NCBI GenBank assembly: GCA_964473825.1 | Contig: CAYYQL010000004.1 | Coordinates: 1-64,000, forward strand | DNA length: 64,000 nucleotides | DNA from: an uncultured archaeon | Lineage (GTDB): Archaea > Asgardarchaeota > Thorarchaeia > Thorarchaeales > Thorarchaeaceae | Direction of reading: 5' to 3' | Shown: piece after piece, positions 43,556 through 58,561 of the stretch | Numbering within the stretch: position 1 is the stretch's first letter | Layout of the letters: every line of letters starts with the position of its first letter | Made by a program: the position numbers and the translations under genes | The notes under the pieces: generated by a model | What the model was told of the DNA's origin: nothing | Seen by the model: only the letters and a program-made list of their open reading frames with translations | The model's database searches: none

Positions 43556-44890
43556 TTATCTGAGATTGTGTTTCTCAACGAACTCCTTGAGAATGTCCTC
43601 GAGATCGGGCTTGCCGATTTCTTGGAGGTCATACCGGACTCTGGTATTGGGCTTCTTGATATCGATCAGTTTCGCCAGGTCGATAGGAGTTCCGACCACA
43701 ACGGCATCTACATCAGCCTTGTCGATGGTCTTCTCTAGCTCTTTCATCTGTTCCTTGCCATAGCCCATGGCAGGCAGAACGTTCTCAAGGTGGGTGTACT
43801 TCTCGAAGGTGTCCTTGATACTGCCCACTGCAAAGGGGCGTGGGTCTACAATCTCGGCTCCAGCCTTCCTTGCTGCGATGTATCCTGCCCCGTAGGGCAT
43901 CTCACCGTGAGTAACAGTTGGACCATCCTCTATGACCAGCACTCTCTTACCTCGGATGATTGACATGTCATCCAATCCCACTGGTGAGGCCGCATCAACA
44001 ATGATGGCATCGGGATTGACTCTCTGAACATTCTCCCGTACCTTCTGTATGTTCTCATAGTCGGCTGTTTCTACTTTGTTAATGATGACCACATCTGCCA
44101 TCCTTAGGTTGGTTTCGCCTGGATAGTATGAGGTCTCGTGTCCCGGTCTGTGCGGGTCAACAAGAACTATCAACAGGTCCGGCTTGTAGAATGGGAAGTC
44201 ATTGTTGCCTCCATCCCATGTGATTATGTCTGCCTCCTCTTCAGCCTGTCTGACTATCTTCTCGTAGTCCACGCCAGCATAGAGGATTACTCCCATATCG
44301 ATCATGGGCTCGTACTCTTCCCGCTCCTCGATTGTGCAGTTGTACTTGTCCATGTCCTCTAACTTCTCGTAACGTTGGGCAATCTGTGTCGTGAGATCGG
44401 GATCGTACGGCATCGGGTGACGGATGTTCACCGGCTGCAGCCCCATGTCAACAAGAATCTGGTTCACACGACGTGAAGTCTGACTCTTCCCGCAACCCGT
44501 TCGAACAGCACACACTGCCACAACGGGCTTCTTGCTCTCAAGCATTGTCGTTTCCGTACCCATCAACCTTAGGTCTGGTCCCAATGAGTTGACCCATGCA
44601 GTCTTATGACCAACGTAGTCATAGGGAAGGTCTGAGTATGCAAGGATGCATTGCTCTGGCTTGAATTTCTCGACTAGTTCCGGAAGCTTCTCCTCCGGGT
44701 AGATCTTGATTCCGTCTGGGTATAGGTCACCACTGAGTTCAGGTGGATAGTCCCTATCACCAATTCCAGGAATCTGCTGTGCAGTGAACGCTACAACTTC
44801 ATAGTCTTCGTTATCACGAAAAAAGCTGTTGAAATTGTGAAAGTCCCGGCCCGCCGCGCCCATTATGATTACCTTTTTCCTGTTCTTCAT
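43556..44890 (-). CDS. COG2403 P-loop protein (cDPG synthetase-related; arginine synthetase ArcE-like)
   Basis: MGAAGRDFHNFN, RTGCGKS, RHPMPY, TIEEREEYE, WDGGNND and EDGPT motifs; start at ATG 44890. Confidence 0.8.
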   Translation of the reverse strand: MKNRKKVIIMGAAGRDFHNFNSFFRDNEDYEVVAFTAQQIPGIGDRDYPPELSGDLYPDGIKIYPEEKLPELVEKFKPEQCILAYSDLPYDYVGHKTAWVNSLGPDLRLMGTETTMLESKKPVVAVCAVRTGCGKSQTSRRVNQILVDMGLQPVNIRHPMPYDPDLTTQIAQRYEKLEDMDKYNCTIEEREEYEPMIDMGVILYAGVDYEKIVRQAEEEADIITWDGGNNDFPFYKPDLLIVLVDPHRPGHETSYYPGETNLRMADVVIINKVETADYENIQKVRENVQRVNPDAIIVDAASPVGLDDMSIIRGKRVLVIEDGPTVTHGEMPYGAGYIAARKAGAEIVDPRPFAVGSIKDTFEKYTHLENVLPAMGYGKEQMKELEKTIDKADVDAVVVGTPIDLAKLIDIKKPNTRVRYDLQEIGKPDLEDILKEFVEKHNLR

Positions 44891-45044
44891 TGAAATCACC
44901 GCAAAGAAGCATGGTAGTACTGCTTCCAAGAAGACTTGGAGTTTCTTAATAGCCTTACGGTATAGAGGAATCAAATTGAGAAGCATTTCAGCTTCCGCGT
45001 TCAGGCACATCACAACAGAACTGGAATCGGCGAGTGCCCCCGGA

Positions 45045-45581
45045 TTACTCTCCGCGCATCAAATGATTCAAGGCGCGCATTCTCATGTGAGGCCCTGTTG
45101 TTATACTTAGCAGACCAAGGCGGACAGAGCGGGGCAGGATTTTGTAGACCAGTTGGTTGAGTATTGCAATCACTCCACTTATCCTTGCCTTCTCCCCGAT
45201 ATTCACCATCCTCGGGTCCGAGTTCATGAAGCCGTACGGTCTAAGGGGTCTTGTCCCATGCAGTTTCGATGAGTACGTCACATTGTCCGAGTCATCCGGT
45301 GGGTCGATGAGAACTAGATCATACGTATCATCAAGGTTCGACCTGACCTGCCTCCTATCAGTCACATCCAGGCAGAAGGTCGGGTTCGCCTCCGGCTTGA
45401 TGTCCACCGTGTGTAGGGTCGGACGCTTCACCACACTCCCTCCGAAGGGGAACAGCATCATGGTCTTGTTGGGGTCGAAGTCTGGAACCAGCTGGAGCAC
45501 CAACAGGAGAGTTCCGAACCTCTCGATAAGCCAGCGGGGAACCTCCCACGATACGGTCCCATCGCCCCTCCGAATACCCAC
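45045..45581 (-). pseudogene. Degenerate virus-type amino-methyltransferase
   Basis: LFPFGG (motif I-like), TVDI and DLVLIDPPD (DPPY with Y replaced by D). Confidence 0.55.
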
Positions 45582-46325
45582 CTACCATCTATGATGGGGT
45601 GCTTGCCGATGGCTGGATGCTCGCGAAAGCCCGTGACAGCGTGTTCTGCTTGAGCTGTTCCACACACTTCGGGTCGGGTGTCGGTCTCCCTCAGAGGTCG
45701 CTAAGTTCATACTCGTACATCCGCGAACCAGGCGGGGTCGGTCTTGGTGTCCGGGATATCGCCGCTCAATCACTAGACCCTGATCCAGAGGCGTAGTCCT
45801 AAGCCCGTATAAGCGCATCATGCATGGTTCTGTGAGGAAGCTCGACTCTCCTCCCATCCGAGACCGTGTCCTTCACAACCTTGAGAGGTACGAGGAGCTT
45901 GGCGGGCGTTCCGTTCGCAGAATGGTGACGGTGACTCTCAGAGATTGCTCAGAGCTGTGGGACTCCCAAACTGACCTCATACACTTGGAGTCGGTCTTCG
46001 AACAGCCCCTTCGGTTCCAGGTGACAAACCGCCTTCATCGACATGATCAACCTCGACGTCTGCGAGCCCCTACCCACCAACACCACCGGGAAGCCCTCTC
46101 GGAACTGGAAGAGTGCTGGTCAGCTCTATCCGAAAGGGGTGTGTATCGGTCACTGCTGGTCGCGCTATCATCAGTGTGTCTCTTGTGTGAGGTGCTGGTG
46201 ATGGGGCTCTCAGACTATGACCAACTGGCTCTCGTTCCAAGGACAAGAAGGGCATAGGCCGCAGACACAATCAAATGGAGGGTTTGTGAGCAAACTCTGC
46301 TGACAAAGAAGCGACTGGTATCAAC

Positions 46326-46502
46326 TCAAGTCAAGCAGGATGAGCAATGGATAAGAACAACAGCGATGTTAGCTACTTGTTTGCAGTCCTCACAGAGTCG
46401 GCTGAAGCGAAAGAGCCTGGGCCAGCAGTCGAGGCACCTGCACTGGTCCACGGGTTGCCCGGTGTTCTCGCAGCGATGACTGGATGAGGTGTCATCGTTC
46501 AC
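46326..46502 (-). CDS. Small Cys-rich (zinc-finger-like) ORF, not in the ORF track
   Basis: Manual translation (GTG start) NDDTSSSHRCENTGQPVDQCRCLDCWPRLFRFSRLCEDCKQVANIAVVLIHCSSCLT, with 8 Cys and three CxxC; GAGGAG upstream. Confidence 0.4.
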   Translation of the reverse strand: MNDDTSSSHRCENTGQPVDQCRCLDCWPRLFRFSRLCEDCKQVANIAVVLIHCSSCLT

Positions 46503-46939
46503 GGCCTCTCTCCTCCTCGTCCATCGCTCAGTCTTCTGACAGTTCTCACATGGATAGCAGGCGCTTGCCTGTTTCCATCCCGCTGAGGATAGTCTTCAGG
46601 GTCATACTTGTTCGACTCATCCGTAATCCGCCGGATCGCATCCATGACAGCTGGTGTCTCCTCTTCAGTTCTGACCGGTCGGGACGCATTCCCAAACCGT
46701 GGGATAAGAATGGGTGGAAAGTATCATAAGTTGTACGTCGAACAGGTCCGGGCTCTCTTGGCGGTCTTCTCGATGCACACGAGGGTCAGGGCGTCGTGTT
46801 ATGGCTATGACGGCCTAAGAGTGCTCTGGTCGTTACAGATAATGTGGATAACCCTCATTACGTTCCTACCTTGGACAAAGGTATACACAACACGACCAAA
46901 TCCGATCATCTCCCGTGATGTCCGAAGAGAAGGTCATAG

Positions 46940-47548
46940 TCAGGGTGTCCTGACCAACCTTGTCGTGGTGTACGACAGGATGGGAAAGAGCGATGAGGTG
47001 ATAGCCATGTAGCGGCGGGCGGTCGGGTTGGAGTGCGAGAACCCGGAGGTCTGGTCGTACCTAGGACTTTTTCTCACAAATGCTCGCGAGGACGCTGAGG
47101 CTGACCGTGTGCTACACGAGGGCATCGAGTTGGATCCATCGAGCCATCGGCTTTCTACTGGCTGGCCTGCGTGTTGGAGCGGTTCGAGGAGTACGAGGAG
47201 GCACTGGACTGCATCACCGCGGCTATCGAGCTGGATCCTGACGAGCCAGAGTATCGACTGTTGCTTGCAGAGTGGTTGATGGCTGCTGGAGAGTTCGACG
47301 ATACTAAGGCACAGATGGCAATTGTACTATCGATAGATGTCTACAACCGCGAGGCAAAGGAGCTTGGGGACAGGGTGCGTATCCGTCGAGTCGCCGGGGG
47401 CGACCCGAACTTGACGGTCTTTGTGCATGACCGGTCTGAGCAGTTGATTGATCTGCTAAATCTCTTGATGAGGTGTCAGGCTATCATTGTCAGAGGGTGT
47501 GGACAGGTGGAGTTTGAACTGCTGACCGAAGGTGGAGAAGCGGATTAG
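46940..47548 (+). pseudogene. TPR-repeat protein pseudogene
   Basis: TPR consensus runs through an in-frame TAG (47010-47012) and a frameshift near 47150 (IELDP repeats in two frames). Confidence 0.75.
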
Positions 47549-47832
47549 GCCCACTATGCGGTGACTGGGATCTCACTACGGGGGCATCGCCCTATGGAGG
47601 ACATCCCGAACGACCTACATACTCTTCTGGGCGACCGGACGGGCCCACACAAACTGAGCAGAGAAGGTTCAGTCTTGGAGCTGGTGGTAAGCATGCGGGA
47701 TTATTGAACTCCCTCCCTGCACTCTGAAGACTCATGTACCAAAATGGCTTCCCACTATGAAGAAAAAAAGTAGTCTTATTAGATACTCCACGATGAATGT
47801 AACACATCCACTGATCTGACAGGGGTTTATTC

Positions 47833-48951
47833 ATGTTACAGAGAGAAACGTGGCTCGTCTGTGTTATGTTCGGTATACTTGTGGCGTCGATGGCCTTTGT
47901 TGGAGCGAATAGCATCCCAACGGAGACCAAGACCGGCTCTCTACCGATACATCAGACCGCCTTTGCAGATTATGTCAATGATTCCGCACGTGTGTTCCAA
48001 TTTCAGGACTTGGTCATCGATAACGGTTCATTCATTGTCGTTGATCCTGGTTCTGAGTACTACTCCATCAACGAGAGCCAGGCTCGCGAGAACGCAATAT
48101 CGTTCTTCCAATTGAACTACCCGGAGTGGGACTGGTCCTCATTTCATCTTATATATGCCAGTAGGGTCTCCCATATACCTGCGTGGCGCTTCTTCGTCCT
48201 GGAGAAGAGCATCTGGGTACAGGTGAGCGCGGCCTCAGGGGAGGTAATCATGTTTGAGTGTACAAGTGGCGCTCTCAGAGGTGTTCGGGAGAATCAGACA
48301 GAACCAATCACACTACCTGCTGCGGAGGCCTCTGCAATGGCCTTCCTCAGTCTGAACAACATCACATTGCCGGCGGATGCACACTACTGTGGGGCCATTC
48401 AATATCATCCATCCGATAACTACCGGATTGCGTTCGAACACATCTCTAATGGGATTCCTATCAAATCTCCTCCATCATTCTCATTGGGGTGCAGCGGGGA
48501 TGGCATCGTTGTTGAGGTCGATGCTCTGACAGGGCGGGTCTGCGGGTTCTATTACGTCTGGCGCAATCTCGGCGTTGTCACACTCAGTCGAACGATAAGT
48601 AAGTTCAGTGCGTATGACATAGCAGAACAGGTTACTGGGAAACGCGTTGTCATGTGCAACCTCACTGTGAGCGATACGGTGGACACAGACAATGTGTCAC
48701 ATCATATGCGCCTTGTCTGGTATGTTGTGACTTCTGGTAATGTATCACGATGTGATATGCTCATTGATGCGCGCACCGGTGAAGTCGTGCAGACTATACC
48801 GTACCGCGAGAGCCTGGACCTGGCAATCTTGGAGCGCCCCTCCGAAATGCTCTGGATTCTCTTTACGGTGACAAGTATAGCGGTTGCTGGTGCCGTGGCC
48901 CTCTCCACAGAGTACGCTCTAAGAAGATCCAATTGCCTAGTGGAAGCGTAG
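47833..48951 (+). CDS. Secreted/membrane-anchored protein with PepSY/YcdB-like repeats
   Basis: Signal peptide, three (V/I)xAxxGx(V) motifs (VSAASGEV, VDALTGRV, IDARTGEV) and a C-terminal TM helix. Confidence 0.7.
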   Translation: MLQRETWLVCVMFGILVASMAFVGANSIPTETKTGSLPIHQTAFADYVNDSARVFQFQDLVIDNGSFIVVDPGSEYYSINESQARENAISFFQLNYPEWDWSSFHLIYASRVSHIPAWRFFVLEKSIWVQVSAASGEVIMFECTSGALRGVRENQTEPITLPAAEASAMAFLSLNNITLPADAHYCGAIQYHPSDNYRIAFEHISNGIPIKSPPSFSLGCSGDGIVVEVDALTGRVCGFYYVWRNLGVVTLSRTISKFSAYDIAEQVTGKRVVMCNLTVSDTVDTDNVSHHMRLVWYVVTSGNVSRCDMLIDARTGEVVQTIPYRESLDLAILERPSEMLWILFTVTSIAVAGAVALSTEYALRRSNCLVEA

Positions 48952-48979
48952 TAGTCGACAGTTCTCTGGGGTGCCAAGG

Positions 48980-49423
48980 ATGAACGCTCACGATGAAGAC
49001 CTTGACCTGCATAGGACCACCCTGCAGGTCTATCGTTGGCTCATCACACAGAGCGAGGGTAGGACCCGTCGCGAGGTGAGAGACGGGGCGCAACTGTCTA
49101 GCGTCAGCCTCGCATCGTATCACCTAAAGAAGCTGGAGTCTCTAGGGCTTGTGACTGAGAATCAGCTTGGCCGCTATTCGGTTGTACGACTGATGCCTCT
49201 GGGAGAGCTCAGGTTTTACCTTCTTCTGGGCAACAGGCTCGTACCGCGTTTCGTCTTGTACTTCTCTTTCTACGGCACCTTTCTCTTGCTCTACTTGTTG
49301 TTCATGATGCCATATGTCCCCATCGACTTTACAGCTCTGATGGCTGTCCTAGCACTATTTGGAGTTATCACCTCCGCAATTGAGATATACATACTCCTCA
49401 GGTCGAAGGTCGGTGGAATATGA
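48980..49423 (+). CDS. Membrane-tethered winged-helix transcription regulator
   Basis: TTLQVY...REV...LSSVSLASYHLKKLESLGLV HTH followed by two TM helices. Confidence 0.8.
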   Translation: MNAHDEDLDLHRTTLQVYRWLITQSEGRTRREVRDGAQLSSVSLASYHLKKLESLGLVTENQLGRYSVVRLMPLGELRFYLLLGNRLVPRFVLYFSFYGTFLLLYLLFMMPYVPIDFTALMAVLALFGVITSAIEIYILLRSKVGGI

Positions 49424-49437
49424 GGGGTGAGAATCTC

Positions 49438-50170
49438 GGCTCTGTTACGAAACTGATGTAATACTCGGATAGAAGGAGGGGGGTGGGACTAACCCTGATC
49501 AACCATGACCCTGTCCTACGACCAGGCCTATGATATGGCAGTCATCCACCACTATGACGTTGTTCCCTCCCTCCTTATGTGCCTTTGTACTACCCTGTCT
49601 CTTCCAGCGAACCACACCGGCCGTCCTCGGGTCTATCCCCTCTCCGCTCTCATTGTCCTGCTGGCACTCATGGGTCACTCTGGCATGACCTATCGAGAGT
49701 TCTGTGCTCTTACCAACAGAGATGAGCAGCTGCTCGCTCAACTGAACATCCCTCGTGCGCCCCACTACTCCACGCTCAATCGCGCCATGGACAGAGTCCC
49801 TCCTGAAGTCCTTCACCGTATGGTCAGCCTGATCGCATCCACGCACCCTCCTCCTCGAAGAGTGGCAGTGGACTCCACCGGGATGAGTCACACCACCGGA
49901 GGCGAGTGGTTCTCTGTGAGGTGCCAGGAGGCCCGTAGAAGGCGTTTTCACGGCCTCCACGCAGCTGTTGATGTTGACACCCTGATGGTGGCCTCGGTCA
50001 TGGTGAGAGAGCGACCTGGAGGAGATGCAACGATGCTGGTCCCCCTGCTCAAGGGGATGTGGACAGATGCCCTTCAAGTGGTGTACGGTGACAAGGCGTA
50101 CCTGTCGAGGAGCAATGTGACCTACATTCACAGGCTGGGAGCACGAGCTGTGCTGGAACCGAAGAGGGGG
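49438..50170 (+). mobile_element. Truncated IS5-family insertion sequence
   Basis: Putative left end GGCTCTGTTACGAAACT at 49438; transposase 49505-~50170; no right end found. Confidence 0.75.
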
Positions 50171-50203
50171 ATTACAGTAGCGCATCAATCCATGAATGTA
50201 TGA
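49505..50203 (+). pseudogene. IS5-family DDE transposase, C-terminally truncated
   Basis: PHYSTL, VDSTG, LHAAVD and GDKAY motifs; the region carrying the third catalytic Glu is missing after EPKRG. Confidence 0.8.
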
Positions 50204-50661
50204 CAACTTCGCATCTATATGACTTCCACGAATTTGCGACTCAGAGATTCATCCGTATGGAGCCGCCAGTGCCGTACACAGCTGATGTGCTGTGGAAAAC
50301 TGTTCTGTTACCACTGTATGGAAGACTGGGTGAGTATGAACTAAGAACTGAGTTGAACTACGCGGACATTATAGATGAGGCGAAGACCCAAGTTCGCAGC
50401 TGGGTGACAGACAGCGAGCATTTGGTCAGAGGATTTGTGAACAGCGCTCTGAGTTTTCTCAATGACATAGGATGGGCGGAATACTTCGGTCCAGAGAAGC
50501 CGGTTGTGTTCTATCCAAACAAGGGGATAGGACAGGGAGATCTCAAGGAGTTATTCTGTGAGAAATGGTACAATTCAAAGACTAAACAAAGAAGACCCAT
50601 TTCGTCAAAGAAAGAAGTAGACTATCTACAGCTTACATTTGACACGGATGAGGGTGGATGA
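50170..50661 (+). pseudogene. C-terminal fragment of an unknown gene joined to the IS
   Basis: The frame is open upstream of ATG 50200 back to the IS junction; composition shifts to AT-richer sequence. Confidence 0.5.
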
Positions 50662-50744
50662 AGCCATATGGGTTATGTCATCGGTTGATAGAACAATCAA
50701 ATATGGATGGGTAACGATAGCTGAAGCCGAACTCATGGTTTTCC

Positions 50745-51101
50745 TTGTTCACCACCGATGAAGGAATCCTCCTCGGAGAAGATCTGTCAAAGCCACACGC
50801 CTTTGTCGTCAAAGGAAGCCTCTTCTCCATTCCCTTGCGGGAATTCACTGAGCGAGCGAGGAAGATGATCAGCAGTGGCGAACTACGCACTATGATTCCT
50901 GCGGAGCAACTAGATAGCCAAGACGAGAGAATGCTTGATTGTCTGGAGATGTTCCTATTTTCAGAAGGGAATCAGGAAACGGAATCGGGGATGGAATCTC
51001 TTTTCGGAAAGGAGGACGTTCCACAGTTCCTGCAGAGGCACCCGATATTGTCCGTTTCCATCGAGAGAATCAGACTTGGAAGGCACGCCAAGACAAACTA
51101 G
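50745..51101 (+). pseudogene. Hypothetical protein fragment
   Basis: 118-aa ORF with no clear start; its 3' end runs into the next, GC-richer segment. Confidence 0.35.
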
Positions 51102-52303
51102 CGGTTCTGCAGGAATATGAAGGGGAGGATGTAGATACACTGCTGAAGAGATACGCCAACAATCTCAGCCTGCACACCGTACCGGCTCTGGCTGTGATGG
51201 TGTACAGACAGGACCCCACTATCAGGATGGACACCCTCAGTAGGCTCAGGAACCTCCTGTTTGCAGACAGCATGTACCTCAAGATGGAGTATGACTACGA
51301 CTACCTCGATACTTATAATGAGATCACCATCGACCTTGAGCAGGAGGGCGAGCGACTCAAGCCCTACATGTTGGCCCTGGGCGTGGGAATGATGGCGTCA
51401 ACCCCTCTGAACCCTGCAATGGCCGTCTGGGGCTTCGACATAATTTCCCAGACCCTTTGGAGCACGTCGGTCTGGGATACGGCAGCCCATGGAGTCATGC
51501 GCTTTGCCAACTGGCTCACACAAGGCAGGGCCTTCGACGAGCACTACATCGGCAACTTCAGCCTGTTCCACATCACCCACGACGAGGGCCTGAACCTGTT
51601 CCTGCAGGAGGCCCTGTCAGAGGTCCTCTCGTTCGGTATCAGCGCTGCGGCGCGGTATGTGGGCCACAGTGTCAAGGCACGGTGGTTTGGTATCGTGGAC
51701 GACGCCATGGACTCCTCCGGAAGTAGATGGTCGAGGATCCTGGGGAAGGGTCTTGCAGGAGACCTCTACAATGTCCTGACCAGTGACACCCCATGGTATC
51801 GAAAGGCCCTATGTGCGGCATGGGCCCTGACCAAGGAGTACGTCGAGCTGGTGGGGGAGGTGGTGTTCGAGATGTCCTTCGACAACATGCTGCGCCTGGA
51901 CCCGTCCGAGCGGCCACTGGGCGGGGGCGAGATGTTCCTCACCCTCATGACCCTGTACACCGTGACTCGCGCGGGCATCGATGGTCGCTTCGAGCCGGGC
52001 TCTCTTGACACGCCCGACCTGACCGCCGGGAAGAGGGCCCTGGATGTGTTCAGCAAGGGGCTGCTGGTGGGCCAGATGTTCGGCATGACGCCGGTCCTGC
52101 TTGCCAACTCACCGCAGCTGGGTATTCCGACCATGCTGTTTGTGACGGGCGTGGGCCTTATCCCTGTACCCACCCTATCGGGGATCGACATCCGGACAGA
52201 TTTCAGGGTGCTCTACCACGGCCTCGGAGGGACGATCTTACTGCCGATGTACTATCTCGATGACATCTTATTCACCGGGAGCCCCATATTCGTTGGAGGA
52301 TGA
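50939..52303 (+). CDS. Hypothetical hydrophobic helical protein, probably the C-terminal part of a larger gene (genuine from ~51080)
   Basis: Long GC3-rich frame; the listed N-terminal ~45 aa overlap another ORF and look non-coding. Confidence 0.55.
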   Translation: MSGDVPIFRRESGNGIGDGISFRKGGRSTVPAEAPDIVRFHRENQTWKARQDKLAVLQEYEGEDVDTLLKRYANNLSLHTVPALAVMVYRQDPTIRMDTLSRLRNLLFADSMYLKMEYDYDYLDTYNEITIDLEQEGERLKPYMLALGVGMMASTPLNPAMAVWGFDIISQTLWSTSVWDTAAHGVMRFANWLTQGRAFDEHYIGNFSLFHITHDEGLNLFLQEALSEVLSFGISAAARYVGHSVKARWFGIVDDAMDSSGSRWSRILGKGLAGDLYNVLTSDTPWYRKALCAAWALTKEYVELVGEVVFEMSFDNMLRLDPSERPLGGGEMFLTLMTLYTVTRAGIDGRFEPGSLDTPDLTAGKRALDVFSKGLLVGQMFGMTPVLLANSPQLGIPTMLFVTGVGLIPVPTLSGIDIRTDFRVLYHGLGGTILLPMYYLDDILFTGSPIFVGG

Positions 52304-52376
52304 GGGCCGTGTACTCAGGTCCATGTCCAGCTGAGCTTATATCTTCCTGCGAGAGACTAGGGTATGTGGTGATACG

Positions 52377-53120
52377 ATGAGGCCCGTGTCCAGGAAGCAT
52401 GCTGCACTGGTTGTCATGGTCATCGTGGTGATTGGAGCGGGGTCATTCTGTTTGTACGAGTCGAACCGCACCACTTTCCACTTCGAGGAGGAGTACTACG
52501 GGGGCAGACCGGCCCGTATCTTCATGTACATCAGGAGTCTTAAGGATGCCAACGTCACCATCTCCTTCGTGAACAACACCTCCTTGATGTGCCGGGTGGA
52601 TGTCGAGCTCTACGACCCGCAATCGGGATCAGTCAGGTTTGTGCGAGAGGTGGGGAATCAGGTGAACCTGGAGTTCACAGGGCGGCAGAGGCGTGTTGAC
52701 ATTGTTCTCGGAACCGCCGTACAGTACGACCTTCTCATCCATCTGGGAGAGAACCTGAACACTACCGTCTGGTTCGGCAACGGTGCAGTGCTGAACAACA
52801 CATCTCTTGAGGCATACCAGACAGGTATCATCAGGATTGCTGTGGACGAGAACGACGGGCTCACCACTCATGGCTCACTGAGTATGGGCGGAGGCATTCC
52901 ACGGTTGGCTGAGGGTCCCCTTCATGTCCTGTTGGACATAGACCTTCCAGAGGGCTACGGGGGCAGACTGACCACCTACGGCGCTCCCATCTCCTTCGTG
53001 GAGCGGGTGGGCTGGGGGTTCTATGGCAACGGGGTCTTTGCCACAGCAGCCACCGTGGAGCATCCCAGGGTGACTGTTGGATTCAGTTGCACCTCCATCA
53101 TCGCCCGCCTCATTGACTGA
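52377..53120 (+). CDS. Signal-anchored extracellular beta-rich protein
   Basis: N-terminal TM helix, beta-strand pattern and several NxS/T sequons. Confidence 0.75.
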   Translation: MRPVSRKHAALVVMVIVVIGAGSFCLYESNRTTFHFEEEYYGGRPARIFMYIRSLKDANVTISFVNNTSLMCRVDVELYDPQSGSVRFVREVGNQVNLEFTGRQRRVDIVLGTAVQYDLLIHLGENLNTTVWFGNGAVLNNTSLEAYQTGIIRIAVDENDGLTTHGSLSMGGGIPRLAEGPLHVLLDIDLPEGYGGRLTTYGAPISFVERVGWGFYGNGVFATAATVEHPRVTVGFSCTSIIARLID

Positions 53121-53182
53121 TTACCTAAGCGACCCTCATCGAGTACATACGGGCATGGATTGCCGACACGACACAAGACAGC

Positions 53183-53577
53183 ATGAGGCATGTATCGTTA
53201 CTCAAGAAGCACGGTTTCAGCCCGACTGACACACAGCGGGCGGTATCCCGCATCGCCCACTTGGAAGATGTGACGGAGAGGGGCGACTTTGCCGTCTTTC
53301 TCCATCAGGAACACGTTATCGCACAGCACAGGGACAAGTGGTTCTCGACGCGTCCGGACGACCCCCGCAGGCCCTTCCTGAACCTGAACTACGCCATGAA
53401 TCAAAAGAACATATCGCGCCTTGTCCGCCGAAACAGGTCATTGACTTCCTGAAGCACTGGAATGGCTGGACCTGCATGAAGTGTGAGAGGCTGTTTCCTA
53501 TCAGTGAGAGCGAACAGGTGATGACAGCAGACTTCAGGAACGTGATTGTTGTACATCTCCCCGGGGACTATGGGTAA
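53183..53577 (+). pseudogene. Frameshifted hypothetical gene (CxxC-containing)
   Basis: Two overlapping + frames (53183-53452 and ~53420-53577) that read as one broken gene. Confidence 0.4.
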
Positions 53578-53945
53578 TTTCTTTCCGGCTCGCTCCACGG
53601 AAACCTATCTTGTGCTGGGTCAGATTGCAGACCAAAGGGTACTGAGTTGTGCAAGGAGTTCGTCTGGATTGCGGTTTCTCAGTGTGCTGTCCCACAAGAG
53701 AAGACGGGGGACTGCCCTTGAGGAGTGGGCATACAAAATCTCAAGAATAGGAGAGGTCTATGCGCTTGAATGAGTGACCCCGCGTCAGGTTATGGAATTT
53801 GCGGTACAGTAGAATAAACTTGGAATGCCCTCCAAAGACAGACCCTAGAAACTGATTGTATTCCAAAAAAAGCAATAATCGAAAACATTGACTAAAAATC
53901 GAATACATGATTATATGGGCAGTCGTTCGAAAAATCGGGACATAA

Positions 53946-54026
53946 CACAAAGGTTTAAGTTTCAGATATGCGATACTAATTAGACGCGACTCAACTTAGT
54001 CTGAGAAAGGCGCGGATTCTGGGGTG
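53946..54026 (+). promoter_or_regulatory. Promoter/RBS of the E2F-like gene
   Basis: Purine-rich BRE-like sequence plus TTTAAG (53954-53959); GGGGTG ribosome-binding site at 54021-54026 before GTG 54032. Confidence 0.5.
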
Positions 54027-54031
54027 CAACC

Positions 54032-54583
54032 GTGAAGCTGATCACTCTCGCCCGGGAGGCAGTTAGGATACTGAAGGAGAGTGGGGATGATGGTATTCGT
54101 AGCGACGAGGTCGCTGAATTTCTTGATGTCCCCAAGAGACGAATCTATGATGTTGTGGCTGTGCTAAGAGCATTGGAAACGGTCTCAACGACACGCAAGT
54201 TCGATGGTACGACTATCACATGGATTGATCGTTTCGAAGACTACATTCCTCGAAGTGAATATGATGCTGTTCGAAAGCAGCTGGATGAGGTCCTTGCTGC
54301 GAAACGAGAACTTCAAGTTCAGGTTGCCGAACAGAAACAACAACTCAGAAACATACGTGGCAGATTCAAGCATGATGGGGTGCCTGTCGAGAAGACCGAC
54401 AAGACCCAGTTCAATACCACTCAGCTCCGTGTGCGATGCCACTCGGGAACTGGTTTCAAGAGAGTGGTGGATTCAGGGGTGGAAGTACTCATTGAGACTG
54501 AGCAACCCGGCATGACTGTGGATCCGACTGAAACGGAATATGATGACAGTCGTGAGATACTGAGAAGCATACAGAAGATGTGA
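54032..54583 (+). CDS. E2F/DP-like winged-helix transcription factor with coiled coil
   Basis: KRRIYDVVAVL (RRxYD recognition helix), wing ending in ITW, a heptad coiled coil, then a beta-rich segment. Confidence 0.8.
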   Translation: MKLITLAREAVRILKESGDDGIRSDEVAEFLDVPKRRIYDVVAVLRALETVSTTRKFDGTTITWIDRFEDYIPRSEYDAVRKQLDEVLAAKRELQVQVAEQKQQLRNIRGRFKHDGVPVEKTDKTQFNTTQLRVRCHSGTGFKRVVDSGVEVLIETEQPGMTVDPTETEYDDSREILRSIQKM

Positions 54584-54961
54584 CTACCGCAATCTGATTG
54601 TGACTTGGCTTCCCCGTCGAACACTCTCCAGCTCATCTAGCAGACTGTCGGGGGATTTTACACTTCCAAGTAAGTTGACGGGGCTGAATGTCTTCATGTC
54701 CCTCACATAAATACAGAGCGAGTCCCCGAGGGGCATATATGCTACCTGTTCTCTCTTGACTTCCTTCGTGGCCTTTACATTACCTTTGCCGATTCCGAGA
54801 GTGATTTTCATCTCGCCCTTGATGAAGGCTGCCTTTCCTTGAATGGGCATTTTCGCTTTCATCTCTTCGACAATCAGGGGACCAAGAACTCTGTCGAGTA
54901 CTACGTCGAGCTTAAGCCCCCCTTCAAACTCGAGTACGATATTCACATCACTCTCGCTCAT
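54584..54961 (-). CDS. Cyclophilin-like fold protein (TM1367/DUF369-like)
   Basis: VAYMPLGDSLCIY...SPVNLLGSV pattern. Confidence 0.75.
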   Translation of the reverse strand: MSESDVNIVLEFEGGLKLDVVLDRVLGPLIVEEMKAKMPIQGKAAFIKGEMKITLGIGKGNVKATKEVKREQVAYMPLGDSLCIYVRDMKTFSPVNLLGSVKSPDSLLDELESVRRGSQVTIRLR

Positions 54962-55039
54962 GATTCCACCAAAGGTGATACCAGGAATCCGCTATTAAAA
55001 CTCTCCCCATTCTCTTCTGAAAATGCTTAATTGGTGCTC

Positions 55040-56197
55040 ATGGAGTATACTAGTAGGAGTGATTCGAGGCTGCCACTAACACGTCTAGAAGTTGCATTTG
55101 TTGTTGACACGACCGGGTCCATGAAAGACGACATCAACGCGGTGCGCGACAGTCTGTTCGACATCGTCGATGACATCGTCAAGAAGACTTCGGAACTGGA
55201 GATTCGCTTTGCCGTAGTATCGTACAGGGATCATCCTCCTGAGGATAGGACCTATGTGACTGATGTCTTCGATTTCACTGACAATGTGAAGGACATTCAC
55301 CGCCGTATAGGCCGACTGAATCCGTCCGAGGGAGGCGACACTCCCGAAGCTGTTGCCGATGGCCTCGCCGATGCGAGAAGACGGCTTAGCTGGTCGCGTG
55401 ACGCCTACAAGATCTTGCTGTTGGTCGGTGATGCCCCCCCTCACGGAAGAAATTACAATACTCTAGGGGACGACCATTGGCCGGATGGTTGTCCTGAAGG
55501 CTTGGATCCAAGGGATGAGGTCAGAAAGATGAAGCGTGAGCACGGAACGAGTTTCTTCCTGTTTGCCTGTGGATGCAATCCGTTGGTTGAAGACTCATTC
55601 AGATCTATAGCCGAATCCATTAAGGGTGGGAAATACTACTCTCTGGTGGAGGCTCACCAACTGCCCATAGCTATCCTTGAGATTCTAGAGGGTGTGAGTG
55701 ATCTTATCGAGGGCGATAGACGAGTACTTGACATCTACAGAGCTAATGATGGTTCCTTTGATATCGCTGAGGCGGCCGCCCAACTCGGAATGGAACTGAG
55801 AGAGATGAAGACCTCATTGTCGCGTCTGCTGGAACTGGGTAAGATCTCACGGTGGCCAAGAGGTCGTCCTTTGAGTCATGATCGCCTTGGAGTTGAGGTG
55901 GTCCTTGGAGATATTCCTTCGGCCATTCTTCCAGGAAGGGCCTTCAATTACGAGATCCGTGCGAAGAATCCTAGCAGAACCACCGTGGGGATACGAATAG
56001 TCATATCTCTGGTTACCTCCGAAGGTGTCTCTGAGGTCACAAATGAGAACCATGACATTGCACCGCGAAGTGACAGGATTCTCAAGCTGCGCTTGACCCC
56101 CATGGTGGACGTCCCTGGAAAGGCGACAATCGGTGTTGAAGTTCTTCATGGCTCTATGTCAATAGAAACAGCAACATATCCTGTAAGGATTCACTGA
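55040..56197 (+). CDS. vWA domain + winged helix + Ig-like domain protein
   Basis: MIDAS DTTGS, YRDH, GGDTPEAV and GDAPPHG; HTH DGSFDIAEAAAQLG...LSRLLELGKI; beta-sandwich tail. Confidence 0.85.
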   Translation: MEYTSRSDSRLPLTRLEVAFVVDTTGSMKDDINAVRDSLFDIVDDIVKKTSELEIRFAVVSYRDHPPEDRTYVTDVFDFTDNVKDIHRRIGRLNPSEGGDTPEAVADGLADARRRLSWSRDAYKILLLVGDAPPHGRNYNTLGDDHWPDGCPEGLDPRDEVRKMKREHGTSFFLFACGCNPLVEDSFRSIAESIKGGKYYSLVEAHQLPIAILEILEGVSDLIEGDRRVLDIYRANDGSFDIAEAAAQLGMELREMKTSLSRLLELGKISRWPRGRPLSHDRLGVEVVLGDIPSAILPGRAFNYEIRAKNPSRTTVGIRIVISLVTSEGVSEVTNENHDIAPRSDRILKLRLTPMVDVPGKATIGVEVLHGSMSIETATYPVRIH

Positions 56198-56199
56198 GG

Positions 56200-57369
56200 G
56201 TGGGAGAACTGGAGATGCAGGCAATCCGAGGGAAGGACCAAAGAGGAATATCATTTGTCAGGCCAGAAGACTGGCTGTCAGATGATAAGGTCGCCAGTAT
56301 CTCCTGTCAAGGTCGCACCGTCTACACCGACATCAGAACGGCCCAGGCAGTACCCTTAGGCCATATCGTGATTGACTCCAAGTTATATGACAGCCTCTCG
56401 TGTTCAGGCAAAGATGGAGTCGAGGTCATCCCAGAGAGTATAGCGCCATCGGTCTGCAAGACTCTCACGATTGAAGTTCAGTCTCTTGCTGGAATAGGCA
56501 GCCGCAGGGTCAAAGAGGCAGTTTCCGAACGAATCCGCGACTTCGGTCCACATCTTGATGACCTCCTAGTCACAGAGGGTCAACAACTCAATCTACAGTC
56601 ACTCAATCTTCGTCTCACAGTTCTGGGTCTCTCCCTGTTTGATTCGCGCGGCACGATTGGACGAATCAGATGGCCTCGCTTGGAAAAGATTGAACTAGTT
56701 GGGGGCGAGACTCCCGATATGTGCGCATTTGTGATTCTGGTTGAAATGTCGCGCATCAGAGGTCTCCAGGATGAGGATGATGCTGCACAGTCTGGTGCGT
56801 GGGCCTCCACTCCGTTCTCTGAGATCTTGATACGTCTTCTTGCAGGTCTGAGAGCATTCTCTGCATCAAATCCAACCAACGTCGTTGTGTCAGTGATTGC
56901 ATATTCTTCTCAGACAGATATCTTCTTGACATACGAGCCGGATTCTGGACAGAAACGAAAATGGTCCGAGATTGATATGGAAGGTTATCTTGAAGCCCTG
57001 CAGAACTGGCTTGCAGACCAAAAGGGCATTCATGATTCGCAGCCTTCTGATCCAGGACTGGCACTGCAGACAGGTTTTGCCGTCGTAGATGAGATGAGAG
57101 ATGATGGTCTGTACCCCGTCTGTATCGCGCTGCTCTCAACAGGTCGGTATTCGATAGGACAGAATCCTGTTTCTGTGGTGCGTCGACAACCCGGTAATAT
57201 CACCACGTTTTCGCTCGGGCTTGAATCTGCATCTGATGAAGATATGCTCAAGGCGATTTCAGAAGCTGGACGGGGGAGAGCAATCATGATGTCTAGGATA
57301 ACTGACATGCAATTGATGGTTGAGGACATGATTCAGATGATGGGGCGTGAGGTGGCTGCAGATGACTGA
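56200..57369 (+). CDS. CDC48-N-like + degenerate vWA protein
   Basis: Aligns by eye with 63136-64000. vWA elements VSVIAYS, DPGLAL, LLSTG, SLGL and LKAISEAGRG are present; the MIDAS is lost. Confidence 0.7.
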   Translation: MGELEMQAIRGKDQRGISFVRPEDWLSDDKVASISCQGRTVYTDIRTAQAVPLGHIVIDSKLYDSLSCSGKDGVEVIPESIAPSVCKTLTIEVQSLAGIGSRRVKEAVSERIRDFGPHLDDLLVTEGQQLNLQSLNLRLTVLGLSLFDSRGTIGRIRWPRLEKIELVGGETPDMCAFVILVEMSRIRGLQDEDDAAQSGAWASTPFSEILIRLLAGLRAFSASNPTNVVVSVIAYSSQTDIFLTYEPDSGQKRKWSEIDMEGYLEALQNWLADQKGIHDSQPSDPGLALQTGFAVVDEMRDDGLYPVCIALLSTGRYSIGQNPVSVVRRQPGNITTFSLGLESASDEDMLKAISEAGRGRAIMMSRITDMQLMVEDMIQMMGREVAADD

Positions 57370-58561
57370 AGAATTCATAGAACTGCTTCAGACCATGCAG
57401 TCCAATGGCACACTTGAAGGGTTCCTCTGCTCCCAGATTCCAAGCGGCAGACTATCCTCTGGATGGATTGAGAACGGTCTTTTGTTCACGAGTATGGAGA
57501 CTTCACTTCGTTCAGAAGCAGTCACAACCACGTACATGATTCCAGCAGACCGATTTGTACGGTTCTTCAAGCAGCTGGATTCCTCGGCCAAATCGAGCAT
57601 ATGCTTCAGCATCACGGGCCCGGCCGGTCTTCGAGAGGAGAAATCGCTCGTGTTGGTTGGCGAGGTATGTCAATCAGGATCCCCCCAAGTTCTGGCAGCC
57701 AGATTCTCTTCGTCGACTGCCACAGAGATATGTCAATTCATTGCTTCTCAACTGCTGCGCATACCATCGGATGAGGATCACTGTGAGCCTTGTTTAGATT
57801 ATCTGGAAGAACTCAGAGAGTTGGTGTTGAGCGAGGAGACCAGTGCGGCCTTGTGCCTGAGCATCCCCAAAGCAACCACACTCGTAAGAGAGGTATTCTC
57901 GCAGGATTCTGATCAAGAGTCCATTGAAGGGATTCTACTGCGTTTGGGTCAGATATCTCAGCTTCAATCGTTTGCAACCAAGGCTGTCACTTGGCTTGAC
58001 CGAACAAAGAAGTTCCAGGGCCAATCGAGCGAGGCGGCAGCAATTGTGTTACGAACGTCTCACCGACTCCTCCTCTGTCTGTGGGACGGACCAAGAGGCG
58101 TAGTCTCTTTCGCTGACATGACAGGTATGTCTCTTGAGAAAATGTCAGTTTCGTTGCTCCTTCCCCTTTGGATTGTTAAAGGTGAGACGATGGATCTTCA
58201 GGACTATGCCCCTCGTGTTCTCATTGATAAAGAAAATGAGGGCATCAAATCTGGGGAAAGGGATGCGACCCCTATACGGCGCGTCGAGAGTTTCGAAACC
58301 ATATCTCAAGAACTTGCTGCCTTAGAAAGTCGTTTGAACAGTGTTTCCCTTAGAGACCTCAGCAAGAGAGTGATGGATTTGGAGGATCGGTTTGATAGTA
58401 TCAAAAGGTTTACACAGAATGCTTCGTCTGATGAGAAGCGAATCAGTGCTGCTTATTCGAATATCGATGACCTTATATCTCGTCTGGAAAAAATATCTGG
58501 GCGGCTTGATAAGATAGCAGACGACCTCGAGATAGTCAGCGATCGACTGAAGGAGGAATGA
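57362..58561 (+). CDS. Hypothetical protein with C-terminal coiled coil
   Basis: GAGGTG ribosome-binding site; overlaps the previous stop; heptads in the last ~90 aa. Confidence 0.75.
   Translation: MTEEFIELLQTMQSNGTLEGFLCSQIPSGRLSSGWIENGLLFTSMETSLRSEAVTTTYMIPADRFVRFFKQLDSSAKSSICFSITGPAGLREEKSLVLVGEVCQSGSPQVLAARFSSSTATEICQFIASQLLRIPSDEDHCEPCLDYLEELRELVLSEETSAALCLSIPKATTLVREVFSQDSDQESIEGILLRLGQISQLQSFATKAVTWLDRTKKFQGQSSEAAAIVLRTSHRLLLCLWDGPRGVVSFADMTGMSLEKMSVSLLLPLWIVKGETMDLQDYAPRVLIDKENEGIKSGERDATPIRRVESFETISQELAALESRLNSVSLRDLSKRVMDLEDRFDSIKRFTQNASSDEKRISAAYSNIDDLISRLEKISGRLDKIADDLEIVSDRLKEE

Follow-up and report, generated by a model that had tools for sequence, protein, structure and literature searches.

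Introduction

The E2F/DP-Rb system is the core switch for S phase entry in eukaryotes, and its origin is an open question. The gene at positions 54032 to 54583 of the stretch of Thorarchaeota DNA analysed here encodes an E2F/DP-like protein and raises the question of how much of this system, beyond the DNA-binding domain (DBD), is already present in an archaeon. The stretch, referred to as the window, comprises the first 64 kb of a contig of 149 kb; the genome to which it belongs has 3.27 Mb (103 contigs, 95.7% complete, 4.4% contaminated).

The E2F DBD in Asgard archaea has already been published, and the gene as such is no novelty. The presence of E2F homologues in Asgard genomes is mentioned in a review of the archaeal cell cycle, and section 4.1.5 of the supplement to Eme et al. 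(2023, Nature 618:992) describes "E2F/DP" proteins across most Asgard groups, in which the base-contact residues are conserved. According to that section, the homology is confined to the DBD, and the Asgard E2F/DP proteins lack the dimerisation domain. Asgard E2F/DP was first mentioned, according to Eme et al. (2023), by de Mendoza & Sebe-Pedros (2019). Moreover, Thorarchaeia orthologues that share the motifs and the approximate length of the present protein are entered as "E2F/DP PF02319" in the eukaryotic signature protein sequence file of that study (supplementary file 5). The family is therefore already known, and the gene described here is a member of the published Asgard E2F/DP-like family.

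An account of the tail of the protein or of its target sites was not found in the literature searched, and candidate target sites were not found in the portions of the text of Eme et al. (2023) that deal with Asgard E2F/DP. Hence, the following predictions go beyond the literature: a tail that would pair with itself, a similarity to E2F that would continue past the DBD as far as the coiled coil, and E2F-type sites conserved at thyA and at a gene for a protein of the RdgC fold. The whole account, in which a homodimeric E2F-type factor controls thyA and the RdgC-fold gene via conserved sites, is regarded as rather probable; more confidence is placed in a protein that binds DNA as an E2F-type dimer, and less in thyA and the RdgC-fold gene as its targets. 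If the tail does dimerise and the TTTSGCGC(SAAA) sites at thyA and the RdgC-fold gene are targets, a minimal E2F circuit acting on DNA-metabolism genes would predate eukaryotes.

Results and Discussion

The Gene and Its DNA-Binding Domain

The features of the gene and of its N-terminal domain are as follows.

54032..54583, plus strand: gene for the E2F/DP-like protein, 183 aa, GTG start, stop included (open reading frame list and translation)
54021..54026, plus strand: GGGGTG Shine-Dalgarno (SD)-like box, 6-11 nt 5' of the start, with this spacing kept in most orthologous loci of Thorarchaeota
54044..54226, plus strand: E2F_TDP winged helix, residues 5-65 (Pfam PF02319)
54137..54151, plus strand: RRIYD motif for DNA contact, residues 36-40, with which the recognition helix begins; VVAVL comes next, and the motif aligns with RRIYD of E2F8 and E2F4
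54221..54223, plus strand: wing tryptophan W64, invariant in alignment A1

The reading frame and the peptide quoted from it in a preliminary description of this DNA agreed exactly with the translated plus-strand frame. The orthologues began with MKL(V/I)xLA at the same position as the GTG start (A1, 30 orthologues), and the GGGGTG box lay upstream; the GTG start was therefore considered sound.

The preliminary description had proposed an E2F/DP factor, to be checked against the E2F_TDP profile, with a TrmB-type protein as the alternative. The E2F_TDP profile matched residues 5-65 with 38.4 bits (E 1e-9; gathering cut-off 25.7) and was above the Pfam cut-off in 30 of 30 orthologues. The match to TrmB (PF01978) reached 15.5 bits and remained below its cut-off of 25.6. 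The best sequence matches in the PDB were E2F8 (4yo2) and, when the family profile was used for the search, E2F4 (1cf7), both over the RRIYD recognition helix. The E value of the E2F8 match (4YO2) was 5e-5 for the single sequence and 2.5e-7 for the profile. Furthermore, a search of 1.84 billion representative proteins with the family profile retrieved eukaryote-type E2Fs that carry E2F_TDP together with E2F_CC-MB (Pfam).

Residues P34, K35, R36, R37, Y39, D40, A43 and L45 were invariant in the 30 orthologues. An RRxYD..NVL helix and a wing ending in tryptophan had been anticipated; the RRIYD motif and W64 were indeed present and invariant, and the NVL part was not, the recognition helix being RRIYDVVAVL with alanine in place of the asparagine. 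This alanine, A43, was invariant in the Thorarchaeota family, and asparagine was kept at the equivalent position in some other Asgard lineages (loci L005, L010 and L011). The winged helix was modelled by AlphaFold2 with a predicted local distance difference test (pLDDT) value of 85-92 from the 30-sequence alignment. Fold searches with the monomer model (Foldseek against the PDB; VIA-align wide) returned generic winged-helix proteins only (MarR, ArsR and Z-alpha), so the fold search does not separate E2F from other winged helix-turn-helix families. Judged by its sequence, the winged helix is homologous to the DBD of E2F/DP.

The Predicted Homodimer

Three parts of the protein follow the wing.

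54251..54373, plus strand: long helix, residues 74-114 (AlphaFold2, pLDDT up to 96), predicted to form a parallel in-register coiled coil in the homodimer
54395..54529, plus strand: beta module, residues ~122-166, conserved, predicted to form an inter-chain antiparallel sheet
54545..54577, plus strand: short C-terminal helix, residues 172-182 (AlphaFold2 secondary structure)

A heptad repeat and a beta-rich segment had been read from the sequence after the wing, and both were recovered in the model, the former as a confident helix at residues 74-114 (pLDDT ~96 in the core) and the latter as four strands between residues 125 and 163 (125-127, 131-134, 152-155 and 161-163). The pLDDT of the beta module in the monomer was 43-59, and such low confidence is expected if the module folds in the dimer only. 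F127, T130, R135, K143, E151, G160, D164 and P165 of the beta module were invariant in the 30 orthologues. The protein ends at residue 183, 17 residues past the beta module, which bears out the statement that no long C-terminal Rb-binding or transactivation region is evident. A search among longer proteins for a fused or long relative gave nothing at E <= 0.01, which is weak evidence.

The prediction of a complex of two copies passed with a score of 0.58, and the best of the three controls scored 0.00. The mark that the score had to reach was attained by 20 of 30 proteins with solved homodimer structures and by 1 of 23 solved as monomers, a rough calibration because our own alignment was used. 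The runs shared at least 84% of their contacts, with a partner pLDDT of at least 78. The contacts of the homodimer were in register along residues 77-101, and the closest were 84:84, 91:91 and 94:94; hence, the predicted coiled coil is parallel. Residues 132-134 paired with residues 152'-154' of the partner, which gives the inter-chain antiparallel sheet. The E2F-like protein is thus predicted by the model to pair with itself as a homodimer. This prediction and the single E2F_TDP match in the 95.7%-complete source genome (40.1 bits; genome search) agree with the homodimer suggested in the preliminary description.

Similarity to E2F Beyond the Winged Helix

The preliminary layout of a DBD, a coiled coil and a beta domain was supported in the order of the parts; the implied similarity to the marked box found no support at the sequence level. 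Pfam matches to E2F_CC-MB (PF16421) and DP (PF08781), the profiles by which the tail was to be recognised, were not found at E values up to 10 in the protein or in the 30 orthologues. The profile search of 1.84 billion proteins retrieved further Asgard-type proteins (113-183 aa) of like architecture as well as eukaryotic-type proteins, and the matches of the latter spanned the winged helix and ran into the coiled coil, to profile positions ~106-131.

Profiles of 43 Asgard sequences and 13 E2Fs were compared with hhalign. The full-length alignment had a probability of 99% and an E value of 5e-18 over columns 3-114, which comprise the DBD and the coiled coil. The coiled coil alone scored 22.4 against the E2F coiled coil (E 1.5e-4, probability 52%), a similarity to be read with the fact that coiled coils can converge. 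In the null distribution, 100 heptad-block shuffles scored 13.1 +/- 2.3 with a maximum of 19.7, none of the 100 reached 22.4, and the reversed template scored 14.9. For the beta module against the marked box, the score was 8.5; column shuffles gave 8.1 +/- 1.8, 33% of them reached the score, and the reversed template gave 8.6. These comparisons give modest support to a similarity that reaches beyond the DBD into the coiled coil. For the coiled coil, homology with its E2F counterpart is plausible; between the beta module and the marked box, homology is unproven.

Short Asgard E2F-like proteins were also observed, namely P0160 (119 aa) and P0163 (113 aa; see also locus L002), in which the beta module follows the wing directly without a coiled coil. 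The two parts are therefore separable, and the DBD is more widely accompanied by the beta module than by the coiled coil.

Two readings of the tail were weighed on these results. The first holds that the winged helix alone is shared with E2F/DP, that the tail is a separate oligomerisation module peculiar to Asgard archaea, and that eukaryotes gained the CC-MB later by fusion; its chances are put at close to even. It agrees with section 4.1.5 of the supplement to Eme et al. (2023), with the lack of a sequence signal in the beta module, and with the variation of the C-terminal parts among Asgard lineages, which range over 113-183 aa with the coiled coil present or absent. However, the coiled coil aligns to that of E2F at the same position after the wing and does so better than the shuffled and reversed controls. 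The predicted homodimer is also at odds with the published view that a dimerisation domain is missing from these proteins.

Interlocked marked boxes are found in the E2F1-DP1 structure (PDB 2AZE). In archaea, proteins with a coiled coil after a winged helix are common, an example being the TrmB family. The second reading, in which the entire tail shares ancestry with the CC-MB of E2F/DP and the protein resembles a homodimeric ancestor from before the duplication, was considered rather unlikely. The order of the parts matches (wing, coiled coil of ~40 residues, 4-5 short strands), the profile alignment is collinear through the coiled coil and exceeds the heptad-block shuffles, the predicted inter-chain beta sheet resembles the interlock of 2AZE, and there is one gene per genome. 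However, the beta module scores within its null (8.5 against 8.1 +/- 1.8, reached by 33% of shuffles), no E2F_CC-MB or DP match occurs in the 30 members, the short Asgard forms have a beta module but no coiled coil, and the layout itself is common in archaea. The section of Eme et al. (2023) cited above, which confines homology to the DBD, also speaks against a shared tail.

Two proteins that had the appearance of "missing links", P0169 and P0164, were set aside because they lie on short contigs of 694 bp (L014, ENA) and 1604 bp (L015, JGI). P0169 is a complete protein of 180 aa with E2F_TDP and a bona fide E2F_CC-MB match (6.8e-10), and in P0164 (388 aa) a weak CC-MB match accompanies a pair of E2F_TDP domains. 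Both may be minimal E2Fs, whose source could be either protists or prokaryotes.

E2F-Type Sites at thyA and the RdgC-Fold Gene

The thymidylate synthase gene is an E2F target in eukaryotes, and it is a candidate target here too. The candidate sites and the genes that follow them are listed below.

G000:C28:2747-3370 (locus L025): thymidylate synthase gene thyA, with the site CTTTGGCGCGGTTCC on the minus strand at G000:C28:2638-2653, ~100 nt upstream
G000:C67:3512-3527: perfect palindrome ATTTCGCGCCAAAT, the second-best position weight matrix (PWM) match of at least 18 bits, upstream of a 252-aa gene
L125:1215-1515 (alignment A2): leader of the RdgC-fold gene, with further conserved blocks, namely ATAC/GTAT repeats, the TTTATATT TATA box, a TTCCAnTGGAA palindrome and GAGATGAG, in that order 3' of the site

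The site near thyA is one of 34 intergenic TTTSSCGC copies in the genome. Of 30 Thorarchaeota genomes (16 genera), 27 had TTSGCGC in the 250 nt that precede thyA, compared with 3.2% of all upstream regions of the source genome. The derived consensus of the thyA site was ATTTGGCGCG(A/G)(A/T)T, with 15 bits. The form conserved in Thorarchaeota, TTTGGCGCG(G/A), is related to the dyad site ATTTSGCGCSAAAT. When the source genome was scanned with the PWM, 5 of the 6 matches of at least 18 bits were intergenic in a genome that is 13% intergenic. A further site, upstream of a 129-aa gene (G000:C6:68148-68537), was discarded as a candidate, being conserved mainly within the genus (6 of 30 at PWM >=14).

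Among the 29 Thorarchaeota genomes (16 genera) with enough sequence upstream of the RdgC-fold gene, all 29 had a palindrome of the ATTTSGCGCSAAAT form that preceded the start of this gene by ~207 nt. Its core was near-invariant and its distance to the gene near-fixed, and the surrounding alignment averaged 50% identity. The TTTATATT TATA box followed ~120 nt from the palindrome, and the SD-like GAGATGAG preceded a TTG start. The TTCCAnTGGAA palindrome of the leader lies near the likely transcription start. A search of the leader against Rfam gave no match, and the 252-aa product had no Pfam match. The model of this product (pLDDT 84) has the RdgC fold, with a Foldseek E value of 6.5e-8 to RdgC; to our knowledge, this predicted fold is newly recognised.

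Proposed Mechanism and the Evidence for and Against It

In the proposed mechanism, the winged helix would read the GCGC core through the RRxYD motif, and the coiled coil and the interlocked beta module would hold a symmetric homodimer in place of the eukaryotic E2F-DP heterodimer. Each half of TTTSGCGCSAAA would be occupied by one RRxYD winged helix of the homodimer, and the proposed bound sites are ATTTGGCGCCAAAT and the thyA site. A symmetric dimer of this kind would suit the E2F-type site ATTTSGCGCSAAAT with its dyad symmetry. Binding of the thyA and RdgC-gene sites by the protein is suggested by three points: the sites are identical with the E2F consensus, RRxYD is invariant, and the dyad symmetry fits the predicted homodimer. 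The homodimer may thus control a very small set of DNA-metabolism promoters that includes thyA and the RdgC-fold gene. Activation is the more probable direction of regulation, given that the candidate sites are located upstream of the TATA box. The role in the cell cycle that the preliminary description envisaged is conjectural.

Several observations weigh against this account. The dimer score can be passed generically by coiled coils, and solved E2F-DP complexes may have helped the prediction to pass. The palindrome lies ~120 nt upstream of the TATA box of the RdgC-fold gene, which is far for an archaeal activator. In the source genome, strict TTTSSCGC was not enriched in intergenic regions (15.7% vs 13.1% of the genome, with controls at 10-14%), and the palindrome TTSGCGCSAA was not over-represented there (2 intergenic and 9 coding copies); without genome-wide enrichment of the site, any regulon would be tiny. 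An E2F-type site in the gene's own promoter was not conserved beyond the genus when the regions upstream of the orthologous loci were compared. Three Thorarchaeota genomes (G063, G093 and G131; 91-92% complete) had no E2F_TDP match; G063 and G131 nevertheless retain the RdgC-gene palindrome, and G093 retains a thyA site. Outside the Thorarchaeota family, the site at RdgC-like genes was not found in the E2F-positive families f19 and f2 (0 of 8 loci), nor in the E2F-negative families f27 and f5. The thyA-like upstream site was found in 0 of 7 cases in E2F-positive families outside the Thorarchaeota family, in 0 of 19 in f9, which has no E2F-like gene, and in 1 of 12 in E2F-negative families. Both kinds of outside family are near zero; therefore, the association of the site with thyA is specific to Thorarchaeota and does not discriminate.

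These observations bear on the explanation that the protein has other targets or is a general nucleoid protein and that a different factor reads the E2F-type sites at thyA and the RdgC gene. The persistence of sites in G063 and G131, the lack of sites at thyA-like and RdgC-like genes in E2F-positive families outside Thorarchaeota, the lack of genome-wide enrichment and the replacement of the recognition-helix asparagine by alanine all point in this direction. However, the sites match the eukaryotic E2F consensus, including the degenerate S positions and the T and A tracts, RRxYD is invariant, the dyad symmetry suits the predicted homodimer, and the genomes G063 and G131 are metagenome-assembled genomes (MAGs) that are merely 91-92% complete. 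A different factor was thought rather unlikely, and control of thyA and the RdgC-fold gene by the E2F-type homodimer is preferred.

The most far-reaching form of this account is that of an ancestor-like homodimeric E2F, with its coiled coil and perhaps its beta module derived from the ancestor of CC-MB, that would drive thyA and the RdgC/CENP-L-fold gene via canonical dyad sites. Taken as a whole, this form is doubtful. If it were true, the dimer architecture and the link of E2F to DNA-synthesis genes would predate eukaryotes, against the published view in which the DBD alone is shared.

The Putative Promoter of the E2F-Like Gene

The elements upstream of the gene are the following.

54006..54019, no strand assigned: AAAGGCGCGGATTC, a GGCGCG core with a 3' flank resembling thyA-type sites, 13-26 nt 5' of the start codon
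53940..53959, plus strand: ACATAACACAAAGGTTTAAG, a promoter block with TATA-like TTTAAG, conserved in loci L001, L003, L004, L006, L012 and L013
53926..53938, no strand assigned: TTCGAAAAATCGG, an element directly 5' of the TATA block, without a GCGC core and hence not E2F-like

Autoregulation was rejected, since the E2F-type core before the start codon, AAAGGCGCGGATTC, is kept within the genus alone. In several Thorarchaeota genera, the TTCGAAAAATCGG element was met again at the orthologous loci in the form (T)CGAAAAATCG(A), and the TCGAAAAATCG element together with the TATA block was common to all genera upstream of the E2F-like gene. The ACATAACACAAAGGTTTAAG block is the putative promoter of the gene, and the conserved region 53926-53959 probably combines a site for another regulator with a TATA box. 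The interval between the preceding gene and the E2F-like gene (53121-54031, ~900 bp) holds short overlapping unsupported reading frames only and is unusually long for a gene-dense window. The GC content is 0.52-0.54 across 44001-54000 and 0.48-0.50 on both flanks, with a DDE transposase gene inside (49505-50203); this stretch may be an inserted segment that ends near the E2F-like gene. The window gave no matches in a search against Rfam.

Neighbourhood, Distribution and Origin of the Contig

Downstream of the E2F-like gene, one neighbour is conserved in particular.

54584..54961, minus strand: cyclophilin-like gene (Pfam PF04126), tail-to-tail with the E2F-like gene and abutting its stop

This adjacency was found in all Thorarchaeota loci examined and in three loci (L005, L010 and L011) of another Asgard family, and the cyclophilin-like gene followed by a VWA gene forms a conserved neighbourhood (window positions 54584-56197). 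Three consecutive plus-strand genes at 55031-58561, one for a VWA-domain protein and two for proteins of ~390-400 aa without a Pfam match, may form an operon.

Among 5.8 billion proteins, 165 homologues were retrieved, nearly all of 180-201 aa, all with PF02319, and with identities from 93% to ~50%; those that bear names are from Candidatus Thorarchaeota archaeon. E2F_TDP was present in 124 of 301 sampled genomes of the Asgard phylum (123 above the cut-off), including 68 of 76 genomes of the source genome's GTDB family and most genomes of ~12 other families. It was not found in some large Asgard families (0 of 68, 0 of 28, 0 of 21 and 0 of 11 genomes) or in the control genomes (0 of 14). Some Asgard families have two E2F_TDP genes per genome (G044, G053, G061, G148, G181, G235, G250, G048 and G058), and heterodimers are therefore possible there.

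The preliminary description had named eukaryotic or viral contamination as the finding that would overturn an archaeal assignment. This explanation is effectively refuted: the MAG is 95.7% complete and the contig that holds the window is 149 kb long, 68 of the 76 genomes in this GTDB family have an orthologue, with synteny to the cyclophilin-like and VWA genes kept, the closest named homologues are Candidatus Thorarchaeota, and a prokaryotic-style promoter and SD box lie 5' of the gene. The protein is archaeal.

Comparison With Known Systems

The published Asgard E2F/DP proteins (arCOG02749) are of the same family as the protein described here, with a mature part of ~183 aa and the shared motifs PKRRVYDV, FDGTT(V/I)TWID, TEFNTTQLRVRA and GIEVLIET. 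The present account differs from that of Eme et al. (2023) in that a conserved coiled coil and beta module are predicted to homodimerise and the coiled coil aligns with that of E2F.

TrmB proteins (PF01978) resemble the Thorarchaeota protein in having an archaeal winged helix followed by a dimerising helix, and a weak, sub-threshold Pfam match to TrmB occurs in 24 of 30 members; eukaryotic E2Fs also match TrmB weakly (Pfam). Unlike TrmB, the Thorarchaeota protein has no sugar-binding C-terminal domain and has RRxYD. The similarity to E2F7/E2F8 (4YO2), the best sequence match in the PDB, lies in two identical-type DBDs that act, or here would act, without DP. However, E2F7/8 carry tandem DBDs in one chain and no coiled coil, whereas here the DBDs would come from two chains.

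The protein shares with typical E2Fs (E2F1-6, PF02319 and PF16421; DP PF08781; 1CF7 and 2AZE) the RRxYD winged helix, the wing tryptophan and, by prediction, a coiled coil directly after the wing. It differs from them in its length of 183 aa, in AVL instead of NVL, and in having neither sequence similarity to the marked box nor a transactivation or pocket-protein (Rb)-binding tail. In contrast to E2F-DP, which is a heterodimer of two paralogous partners, one gene would provide a predicted homodimer. As in typical E2F-DP, the GCGC core would be read by a dimer, and the candidate sites equal the E2F consensus TTTSGCGC in sequence.

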